IMG/VR virus record: IMGVR_UViG_2802429251_000002
Length of the DNA: 16,523 nucleotides
Direction: 5' to 3' (one strand)
From: a virus
Lineage: Duplodnaviria > Heunggongvirae > Uroviricota > Caudoviricetes
Shown: positions 3,175 through 16,523 of the stretch, one piece after another
Numbering within the stretch: position 1 is the first letter of the stretch
Layout: every line of letters starts with the position of its first letter
Notes under the pieces: model-generated
Database searches by the model: none
Told to the model about the DNA's origin: nothing
The model's input: the letters and a program-made list of their open reading frames with translations, nothing else
Made by a program: the position numbers and the translations under genes

Positions 3175-3752
3175 TGCGGGCCTCCTGTCGAATCGCTGCC
3201 ACCTTTCACGCCACCGTGTTTATGCGTATGCACTGTGATGCCGTTTGAGGTGAAATCGCCGCCGCTGTGCGTGATATTGCCGCTCATCTTTCCCCCTTTT
3301 GTGACGTAAAGCGTCGCCGTTCTCAGAAGGTTTGTGCATTCCACGACGGGCGTGTCCAGTGTCACGCTGACGGATGCCTGTAAAGTGGCCGTTTTCATGC
3401 CGCTGGCGCTCAGTGCGCCTGCGTCCGCGTCGTAGCGGAACACCGCGCCGTCCGGCGCGCTGATCACGATTTCTTTCAGGCTTTTGCCGGGGGCCGGATT
3501 GGCATCACTCCACAGGCTGCCAATTATCATGGCGGTTTCCGGGTTGCCGCCAATGCAGGCAATTACCACCTGTTCGCCTGGTGATGGCGGCAGCCACACA
3601 TTGAAGGCTCCCGCGCGCGTGGTGTTCCAGCGCAACCAGCCTGTCTCCAGTTCGCCGCTGCGAACGCGCACGCGCCAGGACTTCTCATCAACTTCAGAGA
3701 TGATCCCGGTGCGGATGATATTGCTCAGCAGTCGCATGAGTTCTGCGCTCAC
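3171..3752 (-). CDS. V: Baseplate central spike / assembly protein V
   Basis: 193-aa ORF in the gpV position; Gly-rich C-terminus (HTHKHGGVKGGSDSTGG) typical of spike proteins; start overlaps the S stop (ATGA). Confidence 0.8.
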   Translation of the reverse strand: MSAELMRLLSNIIRTGIISEVDEKSWRVRVRSGELETGWLRWNTTRAGAFNVWLPPSPGEQVVIACIGGNPETAMIIGSLWSDANPAPGKSLKEIVISAPDGAVFRYDADAGALSASGMKTATLQASVSVTLDTPVVECTNLLRTATLYVTKGGKMSGNITHSGGDFTSNGITVHTHKHGGVKGGSDSTGGPQ

Positions 3753-4384
3753 CGTACAGCCTCCGCAATCCGGCCCAGCACCGTGTTATAAATCAGGCGT
3801 TCATCTGCCTGACTGATGCCCAACAGCTCACGTACCGGGTAATCGGTGAAAATGCCCGGCGCAACCTGATCGCGCTCACCGAACTGATGAACGCGTGCAA
3901 TACGTGCAGCCACGCCGCTGTAACCCACCGTCACACCGGAAGTATCCGCACGGGCTTTCAGGTAGCGGGCGGTGCGCAGTTTTACGAACATGGGGACGCG
4001 CTTTGTGCTGTCCTGGTTGATGCGCCGGGTGCGTATTTCCAGAAAGCGGTCGATGTCATCCCGGTAAAACGTGCGGATGTTGTTTTTATCCTCATCCCAC
4101 CCGGTGATGGTTCGCCCGTATTTCCCCGTGTCGTGATGCCAGTTTTTCAGCGTGCGTGCTTCGTTATTCCAGATAAAGCGAATGCGTTCCTGTATCCGGG
4201 TTACGCGGCGTCTGCGTGGTGTCCATGCGGTCCCGTCCGGCGCTTTCTGTGACCGGATACGTGCCTGCTGGGCGCGACGTAAATCCTGTGCCAGCTTTCT
4301 GGCGATGTTATTGATGGCCTGCTGATTCAGGCTGTCGCGGATGGCCTCAAAGGTTTCATCCACGCGGGTGAATGCCTTATCCAT
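3749..4384 (-). CDS. S: Tail completion / virion morphogenesis protein S-like
   Basis: ORF 3749..4393 begins with GTG; I prefer the ATG at 4384 (MDKAFTRVDE...), giving 211 aa. Position between R and V matches P2 gpS, though it is longer than P2 gpS (about 150 aa), so the N-terminal boundary is uncertain. Confidence 0.7.
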   Translation of the reverse strand: MDKAFTRVDETFEAIRDSLNQQAINNIARKLAQDLRRAQQARIRSQKAPDGTAWTPRRRRVTRIQERIRFIWNNEARTLKNWHHDTGKYGRTITGWDEDKNNIRTFYRDDIDRFLEIRTRRINQDSTKRVPMFVKLRTARYLKARADTSGVTVGYSGVAARIARVHQFGERDQVAPGIFTDYPVRELLGISQADERLIYNTVLGRIAEAVR

Positions 4385-4844
4385 CGCTTTCACCCCACGT
4401 CACATCCTGGAATACATGCGACCAGTCGCCTTCGGAAGATGGCAGGCGGGGTTTTGGCTCCGGCAGGTGTTCTGCCTGCGGTGTGCCCTGACTGCTGCGC
4501 GTGATGCGAACGCGTTCCCGCAAGGGGAGCGTAAACAGGAGATCGGCGCTGTCATCGTCATTGATAACGGCGGAGAATTTGATGTCCTGATTACGCTCAG
4601 GGTTGAGCAACAACTGTGGCTGATTTTGGGATAACCACGCCAGCAGCGGCAGCGTGAGGTCATCCAGCTCCCCGGCGTAATCCATGACAAACATCACCAT
4701 CTGATAGCGGTAAACAAACGATGGGGTTTCTCCGGTCGTTTCAATGTTGCCGCTCTCCACGAAAATGGTGAATTTTTCCGGGTTGGCCTGACACCATCGG
4801 CATGAACGGGTCATGGCTTCACGCAGGGAATCAGTTTTCAGCAT
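4377..4844 (-). CDS. R: Tail completion protein R-like
   Basis: 155-aa ORF, the same size as P2 gpR; GAGGA ribosome-binding site 8 nt upstream of ATG 4844; sits between the lysis cassette and S as in P2. Confidence 0.75.
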   Translation of the reverse strand: MLKTDSLREAMTRSCRWCQANPEKFTIFVESGNIETTGETPSFVYRYQMVMFVMDYAGELDDLTLPLLAWLSQNQPQLLLNPERNQDIKFSAVINDDDSADLLFTLPLRERVRITRSSQGTPQAEHLPEPKPRLPSSEGDWSHVFQDVTWGESDG

Positions 4845-11561: not shown

Positions 11562-12607
11562 TGAGCAGAAAAAATAAAAAAGTGCGCATGAGTTCACGCA
11601 TTGATCTCGCTGATGCGCTCAGGAAAGAATCATCGCTCAGTGCATTCACATTTGATGGTCCTTATCGCCTGACCGGGCATGACCTGCTGGACAATATGTA
11701 CTGTGCTGATAACGGGCGGTGGTATGAAACCCCGGTGGACTGGTACGGTCTGGCAAGAGCTGCCCGGCAAACGTCCTGGCATCAGTCTGCGCTTTACTTT
11801 AAGCGCAATGTATTGCTCGGTTGCTACATCCCGCACCCGCTGCTTTCCCGGCAGGATTTCTCGGCGCTGGCGCTGGACTGGTTTGTGTTCGGTAACGCAT
11901 TCCTTGAGCTTCGAAGCAATATGCTCGGCGAACCGCTTAAATTACGGCACGCCCTGGCGAAATACATGCGACGCGGAAGCGATCTTGAATCATGGTGGTA
12001 TGTGCAGGATGGCAAGGACGCGTTCCAGTTTCGCCCTGGCAAAGTGTGCCACCTGATGAATCCGGATATTAACCAGGAAATCTACGGCATGCCGGAATAT
12101 CTTGGCGCATTACTCTCGGCCAGCCTGTCTCATTCGGCGGACATGTTCAGAAAACTGTATTACGACAACGGATCCCACGCCGGGTGCATCATCTACATCG
12201 GTGCAGCGCAGGTAAACCGCGAAAGCATGGACTCCCTGAAAGAAACGCTACAGGGGGCACGTGGTGGTGGTGCGTTTAAAAACGTGCTCATTCATGCGCC
12301 CAACGGGGGCAAAGAGGGGGTGCAAATTTTGCCGTTCCAGCAGATCACCGCAAAGGATGAGTTCATGAATGTTAAGGCGGCATCCCGTGATGATGTGCTG
12401 GCTGCGCACCGCGTTCCGCCGCAACTGATGGGGGCAATGCCGGGCGAAAAAAGTGCGTTTGGTGATGTGGAGAAGGCCGCGCGGGTTTACGCAATTAACG
12501 AGCTGATGCCCGTCATGGAGGCCATGAAGCACATCAATGACTGGCTTGGCGAAGAGGTGATCCGCTTTAACTCTTACGCACTGTTAGACACCCAGCCCAC
12601 ATCCTGA
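11561..12607 (+). CDS. Q: Portal vertex protein Q-like
   Basis: 348-aa ORF (P2 gpQ 344 aa) downstream of and overlapping P; adjacent to the non-coding region where cos is expected, as in P2. Confidence 0.9.
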   Translation: MSRKNKKVRMSSRIDLADALRKESSLSAFTFDGPYRLTGHDLLDNMYCADNGRWYETPVDWYGLARAARQTSWHQSALYFKRNVLLGCYIPHPLLSRQDFSALALDWFVFGNAFLELRSNMLGEPLKLRHALAKYMRRGSDLESWWYVQDGKDAFQFRPGKVCHLMNPDINQEIYGMPEYLGALLSASLSHSADMFRKLYYDNGSHAGCIIYIGAAQVNRESMDSLKETLQGARGGGAFKNVLIHAPNGGKEGVQILPFQQITAKDEFMNVKAASRDDVLAAHRVPPQLMGAMPGEKSAFGDVEKAARVYAINELMPVMEAMKHINDWLGEEVIRFNSYALLDTQPTS

Positions 12608-13097
12608 CGCGCTTCGCTTGTCTGCTGCTTCGCCGGGGCATAAAAAATTTATGCCCCGACTCTCCAGCTCCTGTATCAATCAGATAATTTCACGACGCTT
12701 TCCTGCTGATTGCCATCATCGACAGTCAGACTCTTACGCAATCCCACCGCGTTGACTGCATGTTCTCGCCGTCTCAGTGCGATTTTGACGGCCTTACCTT
12801 TCACCCCATCAAATCAAAAGCTCTCACGTCTTTTTCATGCTCAGCGTGAGAAATATGGCCATTCTGTTGTATCTCTGCGACATCGTTCAGGGAATGCTAT
12901 TTACCCCCTGAAACGCGGGCTGTTCCCCCGTCACCTGCGCGCAGAAAAAGCGCGTTTTTTTGTGCACGCACGGATCCTTGACGGATCCAGCCGCCATGCG
13001 GGCCGGAAGGGTAAAAAGTCGTTCAAAAAAATTGTGCAAATTTGTGCACTATTGTGCAGAAGGGCGATGCGCGATTATCGCCCTGGTTTGAGGGGGA
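12608..13097. other. Non-coding region expected to contain cos (cohesive end / packaging site)
   Basis: In P2 the cohesive end lies just beyond the 3' end of Q; here 490 bp without a convincing ORF separate the convergent Q and Ea22-like genes. Contains a perfect 10-bp-stem hairpin (12634-12656), helically phased TTGTGCA repeats and a C-rich segment (12921-12939) loosely resembling the reverse complement of the P2 cos 19-mer as I recall it. Exact cos position not determined. Confidence 0.35.
12936..12961 (+). terminator. Candidate intrinsic terminator for the P-Q transcript
   Basis: ctGCGCGCagaaaaaGCGCG followed by seven T (12955-12961); the stem is short (5-6 bp). Confidence 0.4.
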
Positions 13098-13688
13098 TCA
13101 GGTGTTATTTTTATCTGTCGTCAGTGAGCTAAACCATCCACGATTTACATCGCAGGACTGATGCGTTCTGTCCTCGTGTTTCTCCTGCCACAATGCTTTT
13201 CCGCCAGCCTTTATGATGGCTCTTTCAACATCCCGCTCGTATCGCAAGGGCTGAAATACGTCATTAATGAAATATTCGCTTATGTCCGGAAGCGATACTG
13301 CAAAATTATTTGTTTGTTGCGCCGTCCTGCTATGCAGCAAAGCGGCATGCTTTAATGCGTCCTGTGCTTTCTGGAATTTAAGTGCATAGTCAGTGGCGAT
13401 TTTTTCCAGTTCAGCGATTCGGTTGTCTTTGGTTTCCAGCCAATCAAGTAGCGCCAATACTTCAGGATCCCCGACATCCAACACTGTTACGCGTGATTTT
13501 TCATAATGTTCGTCAGCAAGAGTTCGGCCAATTTTGAAATCTCCATCATCACCATAACCGGAGCAGGCATAAACAACCTGTGCTCCAGATATTCGCTGAA
13601 TTGACATTTCCTCGCCGCAAATAGGGCATTTCGGTACTGGCACAGGTGAATAACGTTCACGTAATGCCTGATAGTTGATTTCGCTCAT
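13098..13688 (-). CDS. Ead/Ea22-like protein with N-terminal CxxC zinc-ribbon-like segment
   Basis: 196-aa ORF with AGGAG 9 nt upstream of ATG 13688. The stretches INYQALRE and VLALLDWLETKDNRIAELEK resemble the Ead/Ea22-like family of enterobacterial prophages (recalled, not searched); N-terminus has CPICGEEM...YACSGYGDDGDF. By eye slightly lower GC (about 47%) than the structural genes. Confidence 0.5.
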   Translation of the reverse strand: MSEINYQALRERYSPVPVPKCPICGEEMSIQRISGAQVVYACSGYGDDGDFKIGRTLADEHYEKSRVTVLDVGDPEVLALLDWLETKDNRIAELEKIATDYALKFQKAQDALKHAALLHSRTAQQTNNFAVSLPDISEYFINDVFQPLRYERDVERAIIKAGGKALWQEKHEDRTHQSCDVNRGWFSSLTTDKNNT

Positions 13689-13751
13689 TAAGTCGTTCTC
13701 CTTGTTTATGTTCTGAGGTGGAGAGCAGGGCGAACTCGCCCTGATGTTGTG

Positions 13752-14063
13752 TTATTCAGGAAATAACGCCCGGATATTTCCGGCCATCTGACTGGTTATC
13801 TGTGCGGTTGATACTGGCTGTGATGCGGGGCGTTCTGTCCTGGTTTGTGTCACTGATAATGCTTCATCACCAGCCCATGCAGCCAGTCGATAAGCCTCTG
13901 CCGGATTCATTTTCAGAAGTGCCAGCCCGGCCAGAAAAGCCACGCGTTGGCCGCTTTTGCGGGCTTCTGGTGTAAGGCTGTCCAGCCAGGCGCATGCTTC
14001 TCCTTCGTTCTTGACGGCGGTGGGCTTCAGATAGAAACTTATCCGTCTGGTTGGAGTCGTCAT
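13752..14063 (-). CDS. parR: ParR-like centromere-binding partition protein
   Basis: Internal ATG at 14063 (within track ORF 13752..14198) preceded by GGAG, 5 nt downstream of the parM stop; 103 aa. N-terminus RRISFYLKPTAVKNEGEACAWLDSLTPEARKSGQRVAFLAGLALL and the IRALFPE motif resemble plasmid R1 ParR as I recall it; gene order parM-parR. Confidence 0.7.
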   Translation of the reverse strand: MTTPTRRISFYLKPTAVKNEGEACAWLDSLTPEARKSGQRVAFLAGLALLKMNPAEAYRLAAWAGDEALSVTQTRTERPASQPVSTAQITSQMAGNIRALFPE

Positions 14064-14067
14064 TGGT

Positions 14068-15027
14068 TTACTCCTTGTCCATTGCGTACAGCCCATTAAC
14101 CAGAGCAAACTGTGGCACCCCGTCCGCGATGAAAGTCGCATTAACTCCGCAGGCTTCGCGGATAGCGGGTGCCACAATCTCCGCCCCTCCACCGACAACC
14201 ATCACCCGCCCGTAACCCGAAAAACCCGCCAGCGCGCGGATCACGCGTTGTTTCAGTGTTTCTTCCTTTTCACGAATTACCGCCATCAGGCTGGCGTAAT
14301 GCGCGTCATTGTGGATGTGCTGGCGCAGCCAGGCTTCATCATGGCGATGTTCGATAATGGTATTGGCGATGTGGTGACTGGTGCGCATACCGTTAGTGGC
14401 CATCACCGACAGTACGGCATCGGCCATCAGAGAAACGCCCACGTGTGGATCGCAAAACACCTGGCTGATACCTGCCAGTTGCCCCTGAACCTTTGCCACA
14501 TCCAGCGTGGTTCCGCCCAAATCCACAATCAGCAGGGATTCAAACGGACTCATGTCAGCCAGTGCCTTAAAGCCAGCCGGAATGGATTCAGGCATAACCC
14601 GTACGTTACGGATAGTGAATGCTTCGCCGTTCTGGTACTCCACCGGGCGCATGACGTTCGCTTTTTTGCGGTTGATGTTGGCCATGTCCGGCTGTGCGTT
14701 TGTATCGAAATACTCGCTCAGTGGCAGGGTGACAACCACATCCACTTCCTGTGGTGTGATGCCTGATTTGACCAGCGCGTGATGAATGGCAATTATATTC
14801 ACATCGCTGTACTGGTATTGCGTGTCGGTCGTCTGGACAAAGCGATCGCTGACCGGATCAAAACCATAGCGCACGCCATCAAGCATGTAGTTCGCGGGCT
14901 GCGTGCCACCGAACGGCGCAGACCATTCCGACTTGAAGCTGTTCGGGCTGATGGCGTTGCGGCGTTCGCCGTTCTCAGTCCATGCCAGCTTGATGTTGGT
15001 GGAGCCGTCGTCGATACAAATTTTCAT
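14068..15027 (-). CDS. parM: ParM/StbA-like actin-type segregation ATPase
   Basis: 319-aa ORF starting MKICIDDGSTNIKLAW; motifs YSDVN, VMPESIPAG, IDLGGTTLD, VVGGGAE and LVNG are collinear with plasmid R1 ParM (recalled); AAGGA ribosome-binding site before ATG 15027. Confidence 0.9.
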   Translation of the reverse strand: MKICIDDGSTNIKLAWTENGERRNAISPNSFKSEWSAPFGGTQPANYMLDGVRYGFDPVSDRFVQTTDTQYQYSDVNIIAIHHALVKSGITPQEVDVVVTLPLSEYFDTNAQPDMANINRKKANVMRPVEYQNGEAFTIRNVRVMPESIPAGFKALADMSPFESLLIVDLGGTTLDVAKVQGQLAGISQVFCDPHVGVSLMADAVLSVMATNGMRTSHHIANTIIEHRHDEAWLRQHIHNDAHYASLMAVIREKEETLKQRVIRALAGFSGYGRVMVVGGGAEIVAPAIREACGVNATFIADGVPQFALVNGLYAMDKE

Positions 15028-15103
15028 GTCGCTTTTCCTTATGTTGATTAATTAATCGGTTACAGGATTTTTAAATCCCGCTTTTGCCTGTTTTGTGCGC
15101 GCT

Positions 15104-16523
<1,420 letters not shown>

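Follow-up and report, generated by a model that had tools for sequence, protein, structure and literature searches.

An Ea22-like gene among the exchangeable cargos of the gpA-gpQ hotspot near cos in a P88-like prophage

A gene for an Ead/Ea22-like protein with a cysteine-rich start lies directly behind the partition genes parM and parR in a P2-like prophage. This raises the question whether the gene belongs to parMR as the third member of one functional unit or is cargo in its own right, and what such a protein might do there. The DNA analysed here, called the window in the following, is a stretch of 16,523 nucleotides from a virus of the Caudoviricetes (IMG/VR record IMGVR_UViG_2802429251_000002). 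The region belongs to a P88-like phage of the P2 family, genus Xuanwuvirus, and is 99.6% identical to phage P884B11 (megablast); similar prophages are found in many E. coli. A preliminary description of the window had proposed an Ea22-like protein fused to a zinc-ribbon-like N-terminus, possibly co-transcribed with parMR as a three-gene cargo operon.

The locus and its expression context

The gene order is gpA-parM-parR-ea22-(cos region)-portal, and the following features can be assigned:

15104-16474 (ORF as listed): gpA, P2-type replication endonuclease; its 3' end precedes parM
14068-15027, minus strand: parM, StbA actin-like ATPase (StbA_N E=4e-82; ParM C-terminal domain E=1e-68)
13752-14063, minus strand: parR, Plasmid_stab_B/StbB (Pfam E=3e-23; PHROG 2515 E=2e-57), 63 nt upstream of the ea22-like gene
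13726-13743, no strand assigned: GC hairpin CAGGGCG-NNNN-CGCCCTG just past the parR stop codon, with a 7-bp stem of which 6 are GC pairs and a 4-nt loop
13698-13703, minus strand: Shine-Dalgarno sequence AAGGAG, read from the sequence, 9 nt 5' of the ea22-like ATG
13098-13688, minus strand: coding sequence of the Ead/Ea22 family, 196 aa, ATG start (ORF and translation, Pfam PF13935)
13061-13084, no strand assigned: 3' hairpin of the Ea22 cassette, AGGGCGAT-N8-ATCGCCCT, without an adjacent T-run
13059-13751, no strand assigned: variable cargo slot of the gpA-gpQ hotspot, with the ea22-like gene as its sole occupant here

In E. coli IHE3034 a copy of the locus with 99.4% identical DNA lies within an integrated P2-like prophage adjoining pdxB. 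There, PGAP labels the protein 'ead/Ea22-like family protein' (WP_001289967), and the neighbouring genes are annotated as terminase, portal, 'plasmid partitioning/stability family protein', 'ParM' and 'replication endonuclease'. With a GC content of 45.3% and a GC3 of 41.6% the ea22-like gene lies below the window as a whole (55.2% GC), as the preliminary description had estimated for the phage core; parM, gpA, portal and terminase have 54-58% GC and 61-65% GC3. Between slot variants the core of the C-terminal part of the protein has a dN/dS of ~0.1-0.5 (small counts), which identifies the ORF as a genuine gene, as opposed to a frame that is open by chance, and these substitution ratios indicate that the core is under purifying selection.

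The gene follows parR directly on the same strand, as had been stated, with a spacer of 63 nt and all genes on the minus strand. The spacer contains the GC hairpin for which the absence of a U-tract had been noted, and this is correct as well: on the coding (minus) strand the 7-bp stem is followed by CTCTCCACC and thus by no U-tract, and on the plus strand by ATGTTGTGTT, a T-rich run. The hairpin recurs behind parR in 63 of 76 loci, independently of the cargo type, with the loops CATC, AGTT, TATT, GAAAC, TATC or AACT and with one compensatory change in the stem from G-C to A-T. Judged by this distribution, it belongs to the backbone and lies at the slot's left edge, outside the Ea22 cassette, and since a search of positions 12400-15300 against Rfam returned no RNA family, it is not a known RNA element. 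The hairpin could insulate parR from convergent transcription of cargo on the opposite strand. It could also attenuate read-through into the ea22-like gene. The second hairpin, at the 3' end of the cassette, accompanies every Ea22-type cargo that has the C-terminal module of the window type; other cargos with the orientation of parMR have clear intrinsic terminators at their end, and the backbone beyond the second hairpin has a weak stem with T7 at 13049-13024.

A simple consensus scan of the minus strand from 12500 to 15300 gave no sigma-70-like site, and no U-tract terminator is found between parR and the ea22-like gene. It is therefore plausible, as far as such sequence signals can tell, that the gene shares a transcript with parMR and, probably, the early operon. 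Homology with cargo types that begin in another gene extends to ~13700, near the Shine-Dalgarno sequence of ea22, so that the ribosome-binding context is a property of the junction between backbone and cargo. Other cargos on the parMR strand have this context in common with ea22.

A mosaic protein with a conserved N-terminal domain

The preliminary assignment to the Ead/Ea22 family holds. Pfam PF13935 (Ead_Ea22) matches aa 2-140 with E=2.1e-32 and 113 bits, at a cut-off of 27, over HMM positions 1-134 of 139, and the protein also matches PHROG 368 (function unknown). Its leader follows the family pattern MSEIxxQALRE, with M1, I4, Y6, L9, R10 and E11 conserved in at least 90%. The coiled-coil core LLDELE...RIAELE is present too, with L80, L81 and L94 invariant and R90, I91, A92 and E95 conserved in at least 90%. 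In an exhaustive HMMER search, 452 of 1.84 billion cluster representatives matched, and nearly all of the best 150 of these pair query residues ~1-95 with their own N-terminus. Most of the top homologues are ~75% identical over residues 1 to ~95 and then have wholly different C-termini, with total lengths of 157-296 aa. Beyond the family itself, the NCBIfam scan yielded sub-threshold zinc-finger noise only, and PDB sequence searches with the single protein and with the family profile returned nothing at E<0.1 and did not recover the lambda C-terminal domain. The PADLOC models matched none of the Ea22-like protein, ParR and ParM; for the Ea22-like protein there was no match at E<=1, and it thus falls under none of these defence models.

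The protein is a mosaic that consists of the following parts:

13467-13688, minus strand: aa 1-74, leader MSEINYQALRE and zinc-ribbon-like module, with C21, C24, C42, D50 and an A-D-x-H61-Y motif
13320-13466, minus strand: aa 75-123, long helix of the coiled-coil type with an LLDxLE...RIAELE core, a continuous helix in both AF2 models
13179-13319, minus strand: aa 124-170, small C-terminal alpha/beta module essentially restricted to the slot, FAVSLPDISEYFINDVFQPLRYERDVERAIIKAGGKALWQE
13098-13178, minus strand: aa 171-196 and the stop codon, a poorly constrained tail of 26 aa

The cysteine-rich start with the look of a zinc ribbon is indeed there, in the form of C21-x2-C24 and C42. However, the claim that an Ea22-like protein was fused to it is not supported, as the block is an internal part of the Pfam model, which the window protein fills from HMM position 1 to 134 with 139 residues. 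Among 144 family representatives with at most 50% mutual identity, 138 span the block, and within these 138 C21 is conserved in 136, C24 in 135, C42 in 135 and H61 in 136, and 109 have H, E, C or D at position 50. In an alignment of 83 diverse relatives P19, C21, C24, C42, G54, D59, H61, Y62 and S65 are invariant. The family consensus has GCHY, with its cysteine aligned to residue 50, whereas the window protein has GDFK with D50 at this site. The Ea22 protein of phage lambda needs only 100 residues to span HMM positions 1-139, and no Cys block can be seen in it by eye; because it covers the full model with so few residues, lambda is the member with the deletion. From the family alignment we conclude that the Cys-rich start is the normal N-terminal domain of the Ea22 family and that lambda is the outlier. 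What is added here to the known name of the protein is that this block forms the conserved core in the majority of Ea22-family proteins.

The block also occurs in the Ea22 variants of Shiga toxin (Stx) phages, where a segment of 63 residues that is absent from lambda has been described (PMC10834534) and was predicted to add three beta-strands and to form an autonomous domain (PMC7093339). In the window protein the block covers aa ~12-74, and the AF2 model places strands at residues 29-34, 37-41 and 67-70. Based on the alignment of 83 sequences, AF2 models residues 1-100 with a pLDDT of 90.7, with a helix at 6-13, beta-hairpins at 20-41, a further helix at 61-65 and a strand at 67-70, which is followed by the long helix. 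C21-x2-C24 forms the first knuckle, on a beta-hairpin, and the second knuckle has C42 alone; H61 is invariant. Pfam zinc-ribbon models gave sub-threshold matches only (E 0.014-0.12), and fold searches returned no significant neighbour. The label 'zinc-ribbon-like' is thus reasonable but provisional, and the invariant C-C-C-H pattern suggests that the domain binds a metal. Zinc, cysteines or metal binding of the Ea22 N-terminal domain are mentioned in none of PMC10834534, PMC7093339 and PMC8614690, a set that leaves Tong et al. 2020 (PMC7271347) outside.

The closest known relatives in overall layout are the Ea22 proteins of the Stx phages Phi24B, 933W and P27 (variants V1-V3, PMC10834534). They share with the window protein the leader MSEIxYQALRE, the 63-residue Cys-containing block, which in the window protein is ~75% identical to that of many E. 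coli prophage Ea22 proteins, the coiled-coil core LLDELE...RIAELE and a three-part layout with a swappable C-terminal domain. The coiled coil of the window protein is shorter, however, and does not have the SKLNEQREYYEGVISDGSK segment. Lambda Ea22 (NP_040612) shares the membership in PF13935, the leader, the coiled coil and the character of an early-gene cargo. In contrast to the window protein it is devoid of the zinc-ribbon-like block, and its C-terminal domain, of which an NMR structure is available (PMC10834534), is a different and larger alpha/beta dimer domain. The C-terminal module of the window protein is related neither to that of lambda nor to those of V1-V3. The terminal tripeptide K/R-G-E of lambda and Stx Ea22 is missing as well: the window protein has ...IIKAGGKALWQEK plus the tail of 26 aa and ends with ...DKNNT, and its equivalent of K/R-G-E is ...IIKAGGK..., which is internal and 30 residues away from the end.

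For the C-terminal module, a query with aa 96-196 matched only 37 protein clusters among 5.8 billion, and the named ones are all Ea22-like proteins of Escherichia, Salmonella or Shigella. For three relatives that have the same C-terminal module (P0023, P0031 and P0010) the genomic context was examined, and each stands directly after parR in the same type of prophage; P0031 forms a tandem there with another Ea22-like gene. In each of the three the N-terminal or the central segment differs from that of the window protein. A C-terminal module that is, judging from these matches, essentially confined to the slot between parR and the portal gene is a further addition to what was known of this hotspot. 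A part of the module also occurs elsewhere: a motif of ~30 aa, EYFIxxVFQPxRYERDVERAIIxAG, ends SE1 gp32, a protein of 96 aa encoded in the nin region of a P22-like phage. The C-terminal ~30 residues of SE1 gp32 and of ST64T orf-86, EYFI(N/D)xVFQP(L/M)RYERDVERAII(K/A)AG, are 81% identical to the window protein at the amino acid level and 83% at the nucleotide level. SE1 gp32 otherwise has an unrelated N-terminus, without Ea22 leader, zinc block or coiled coil, and without a Pfam match.

In AF2 the C-terminal module reaches a pLDDT of 52-66, which is low confidence, and the tail, which is predicted to be disordered, only 29-35. The full-length model has a pLDDT of only 60.7, and a Foldseek search of the PDB with this low-confidence model gave no meaningful match. 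Compared with the most divergent variant, the dN/dS of the tail is ~0.7-1.0, whereas the core is at 0.1-0.5 (small counts). Shorter relatives end without such a tail, P0010 with ...WQEA and P0007 with ...WQEAEDN. Therefore, the 26 residues are probably a read-through extension past an ancestral ...AGGKxxWQE end, as can be read from these termini.

Turnover of cargo behind parR

The slot was surveyed in 80 related IMG/VR loci, which were collected via ParR, together with phage and genome loci, and homology was mapped onto the window; a ParR search of a contig collection with one genome per species returned 3 loci only. In 75 related loci homology is unbroken from gpA through parR to ~13700-13752 and comes back at 13058/13059, from where it runs on through the portal gene. 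Clustering of the sequence in between resulted in 26 cargo types in 76 slots, which range from 537 to 3715 bp. An Ea22-like gene is present in 31 of the 76 slots and occurs in eight configurations; the other 45 slots do not contain one. The configurations include the window type, types with other N-terminal modules, types with an overlapping ORF of 174 aa in front, and a frameshifted remnant. The latter, cluster c3, is a remnant of a window-type ea22 gene that is partly overwritten by a gene for a membrane protein. The ea22-like gene thus lies between gpA and gpQ and is replaced by unrelated genes in related prophages, as is characteristic of cargo in the gpA-gpQ hotspot.

This cos-proximal hotspot was described by Rousset et al. 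2022 (PMC9122126) and was revisited in NAR 2026 (PMC13586616), and the exact parMR-ea22 arrangement is tabulated in Table S5 of the former. As the protein has a RefSeq name and the published survey lists the arrangement of the locus, both carry little weight as a discovery. The slot mixes bona fide defence systems and early genes of the lambdoid type, which is another modest addition of the present analysis. Defence genes in sister slots encode IetA, AbiLi/AbiLii, RmrA, PDC-M04A and a Doc-like toxin; an ORF of 734 aa downstream of IetA can be regarded as its Ietsu partner by position alone. Further cargos are DUF4760 membrane proteins and an ORF with a ClpX-type zinc finger together with small ORFs in lambdoid style. 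With other cargo of the hotspot, for example old and tin of P2 (PMC9122126, PMC13586616), the ea22-like gene shares the position by cos and the cassette-like turnover. Unlike most recognisable defence cargos, however, it has no known defence domain, lies on the parMR strand and has no detected promoter of its own.

The distribution of parMR is much wider than that of the gene behind it. Of 5426 complete E. coli genomes, 1307 contain parMR DNA, at 1455 places of which 1453 are chromosomal, whereas 134 have the full ea22 gene. By this measure parMR is a conserved part of the backbone of P88-like prophages. The preliminary description had suggested to check for co-occurrence with parMR across genomes, and the numbers speak against a coupling: with 26 cargo types in the slot and 1307 parMR-bearing against 134 ea22-bearing genomes, the gene is interchangeable cargo and not part of a dedicated three-gene unit. 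The proposed cargo operon fails as a unit in the same way, as at least 25 other cargo sets take the place of ea22 behind parR. Where ea22 and parMR are found together, this reflects residence in the hotspot of one phage lineage and not a dedicated functional link. In summary of the slot data, the ea22-like gene is one of the exchangeable cargos that a P88-like prophage carries next to cos, in the gpA-gpQ hotspot.

Exchange also takes place within the gene. Partial matches to ea22 fall at module boundaries (nt 1-371, nt 250-591 and nt 25-214), and those of nt 25-214 belong to O157 prophages and to plasmids of ~110 kb. One and the same C-terminal module is combined with four N-terminal modules in the slot (P0012/P0023, P0031, P0040-type and window type). 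Conversely, the N-terminal module of the window type is found with other C-termini in lambdoid prophages, O157 prophages and the ~110-kb plasmids, and among phages the DNA of this module matches, for example, lambdoid ES18 and P1-like D6. Hence the view that Ea22-like genes are normally found in lambdoid prophages is right insofar as lambdoid relatives exist, but too narrow, since P1-like D6, the ~110-kb plasmids and the P2-like slot have to be included. Stx and lambda ea22 lie in the exo-xis or nin region of lambdoid phages, whereas the window gene lies between parR and portal in a P2-like prophage. Thus, the survey adds that Ea22 genes recombine by module within one P2-like slot and trade parts with lambdoid and P1-like elements.

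Possible roles of the Ea22-like protein

For lambda and Phi24B it is known that ea22 is an early gene whose deletion lowers host survival and lysogeny, and that Ea22 forms tetramers with variable C-terminal domains (PMC7093339, PMC10834534); the tetrameric, early and pro-lysogenic character of Ea22 is known only for lambda, Phi24B and P27. By analogy, the reading that we tentatively prefer, and which we still regard as somewhat less than probable, is that of an oligomeric adaptor which is expressed early by read-through, with the zinc domain as the common core and the C-terminal module selecting the target. The gene would be expressed by read-through out of parMR and the early replication operon, which is indicated by the lack of an own promoter and of an upstream terminator and by the strong ribosome-binding site. 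The protein would then be made early after infection or induction, like ea22 in lambda and the Stx phages, and would assemble through its coiled coil into an oligomeric scaffold, probably a tetramer. A shared activity or contact might come from the conserved zinc domain, and the swappable C-terminal module might recognise a target of host or phage and shift the balance between lysis and lysogeny. Such a protein would be no partition protein, and the frameshifted and partly overwritten remnant in cluster c3 shows that the gene is dispensable for the phage. The pro-lysogenic role was shown only in lambdoid phages, with C-terminal domains that are unrelated to that of the window protein. In P2-like phages the lysogeny decision is made via C/Cox and not via CII/CIII. 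The target of the Ea22-like protein may thus differ in a P2-like phage.

A conflict gene would be a possible alternative, although we consider it rather unlikely: the protein could act as a superinfection-exclusion or defence factor, or as an anti-defence protein in which a rapidly swapped inhibitor or sensor module is carried on the Ea22 scaffold. The place would be suitable, since the slot is the published defence hotspot of P2-like phages and sister loci carry IetA/IetS, AbiLi/AbiLii, RmrA, PDC-M04A, the Doc-like toxin and DUF4760 proteins. Such extreme swapping of N- and C-terminal modules, with a conserved core in between, is a typical trait of arms-race proteins, the low GC content marks horizontally acquired cargo, and according to a 2026 preprint the anti-OLD protein Oad2 (EaE-like) occurs in some cases as a fusion with an EaD/Ea22 protein. 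However, the protein has neither a PADLOC match at E<=1 nor an enzymatic or effector domain. Moreover, an own promoter is not detected, whereas most recognisable defence cargos are on the opposite strand or have their own upstream region, and ea22 starts, like other small ORFs of the lambdoid type, 64 nt past parR on the parMR strand. Rousset et al. (PMC9122126) catalogued the arrangement, and the accessible part of their survey contains no report of a test. Residence in a slot whose occupants in other loci include Ietsu, AbiL, RmrA and PDC-M04A agrees with a conflict role as well as with the early-adaptor reading.

A broader version of the conflict idea, which appears unlikely to us, would see Ea22 proteins in general as modular delivery scaffolds for conflicts between phages or between phage and host. 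The Cys3-His N-terminal domain would be the shared core, and the slot-restricted C-terminal module would be an inhibitor or trigger of a specific immune system, a competing phage or a satellite. If Ea22 proteins were such conflict adaptors, the slot would represent a natural series of domain-swap variants.

It is quite improbable that the gene is a functionless and decaying hitch-hiker, a mosaic left over from recombination, illegitimate or homologous, between lambdoid and P2-like prophages. Decay is seen in the frameshifted, partly overwritten copy of cluster c3 and in the near-neutral tail of 26 aa with its predicted disorder, and most P88-like prophages do without the gene. However, the intact ORF is kept at >=99% identity in more than 100 genomes, and the core has a dN/dS of only ~0.1-0.5. 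The gene has a strong Shine-Dalgarno sequence and an intact start, the N-terminal domain retains every family-invariant residue, and several independent module combinations have their reading frame intact.

That the protein is an accessory of ParMR, as an adaptor or regulator in a dedicated parM-parR-ea22 module, would agree with the shared strand, the 63-nt gap and the missing terminator, which probably result in one transcript, and with the position of every examined C-module protein directly after parR, but it is very improbable and was rejected on distribution, as the co-occurrence expected for a part of a type II ParMRC system is not found: only 134 complete E. coli genomes have the full gene against 1307 with parMR, 26 unrelated cargo sets follow parR in 76 loci of which 45 have no Ea22-like gene, the exchange junctions lie exactly between parR and the gene, and the relatives of the N-terminal module in lambdoid prophages have no parMR adjoining them. 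With regard to the flank of the slot, a P2 cos sequence was not found with up to 3 mismatches. TTGTGCA repeats were considered as a candidate parC site and set aside, since they are located in the conserved cos-proximal flank and are at least as likely to serve in packaging.

Contents and turnover of the cargo slot

The Ea22-like gene of the window (13098-13688, minus strand, 196 aa) occupies a variable cargo slot between parR and the portal gene (13059-13751), and in the sister prophages (loci L024, L049, L057, L080, L028, and L032) the same slot holds known or candidate defence genes, most of which are encoded on the strand opposite to parMR.

Known or candidate defence contents of the parR-portal slot in sister prophages
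IetA with a large downstream ORF
AbiLi/AbiLii
RmrA
PDC-M04A
Doc-like toxin with a Phd-like partner
DUF4760 membrane proteins

Directly 3' of the parR stop codon lies the hairpin CAGGGCG-N4-CGCCCTG (13726-13743), which is kept in 63 of the 76 loci compared, irrespective of the cargo, and which across the loci displays six different loops as well as one compensatory change from G-C to A-T. This hairpin appears to be a structural element that bounds the hotspot.

The exchange of cargo can be followed in the four loci of cargo cluster c3 (L030, L036, L064, L082), where the Ea22-like gene of the window persists as a frameshifted remnant. Homology on the DNA level reaches down to position 13318, and the remainder of the gene is replaced by a gene on the opposite strand that encodes a 176-aa membrane protein. 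The remnant is a snapshot of cargo turnover. Moreover, three Salmonella loci (L096-L098) carry two Ea22-like genes of 181 aa and 169 aa in tandem in the slot after parR (3429-4510), which shows a duplication or stacking of members of this family.

Neighbours and possible translation signals of Ea22-like genes

A 174-aa ORF starting with MKKYEYMLMKEALRAG is found at nt 61-585 of the slot of L066, and neither Pfam nor PADLOC yielded a match for it. In four cargo types (L044, L054, L060, L066) this ORF and the start of an Ea22-like gene overlap by 4 nt, and in two further loci, L091 and L092, it is located downstream of the Ea22-like gene. A fifth cargo type, L073, has the ORF upstream of other genes and contains no Ea22-like gene. 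The 174-aa ORF may be a functional partner.

Ea22 proteins have a C-terminal K/R-G-E tripeptide (PMC7093339). In the lambdoid locus L093 (5587-5605) this tripeptide is encoded by AAAGGAGAG, which immediately precedes TGAGATG, the stop codon followed by the start of the next gene. The motif may simply represent the Shine-Dalgarno sequence of a translationally coupled downstream gene. Folding of the RNA of the parR-ea22 spacer (13695-13725, minus strand) gave an overall z-score of -2.6, with CUCUC right after the hairpin predicted to pair with GGAGA of the Shine-Dalgarno sequence of the Ea22-like gene. Very speculatively, this pairing could weakly occlude the ribosome-binding site.

The partition genes and the repeats at the right edge of the slot

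In this integrating P2-like prophage the actin-type partition pair ParM/ParR, which together with the gpA-parM spacer spans 13752-15103, belongs to the backbone. Of 5426 complete E. coli genomes, 1307 carry the pair, and 1453 of its 1455 places are chromosomal. Iterons such as parC would be expected to have are absent from the 76-bp spacer between gpA and parM. At the other side of the slot, three exact copies of the heptamer TTGTGCA with 10-bp spacing (13032-13058) abut its conserved right edge, and a fourth copy (12960-12966) is found 72 bp from this array; over the whole window the heptamer is not enriched overall (7 matches versus 4 expected). Since the record of phage P884B11, which is 99.6% identical to this region, opens at the position corresponding to ~13014, cos is probably located near 12996-13014. 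The repeats could form an array for packaging or protein binding, or possibly a parC-like site.
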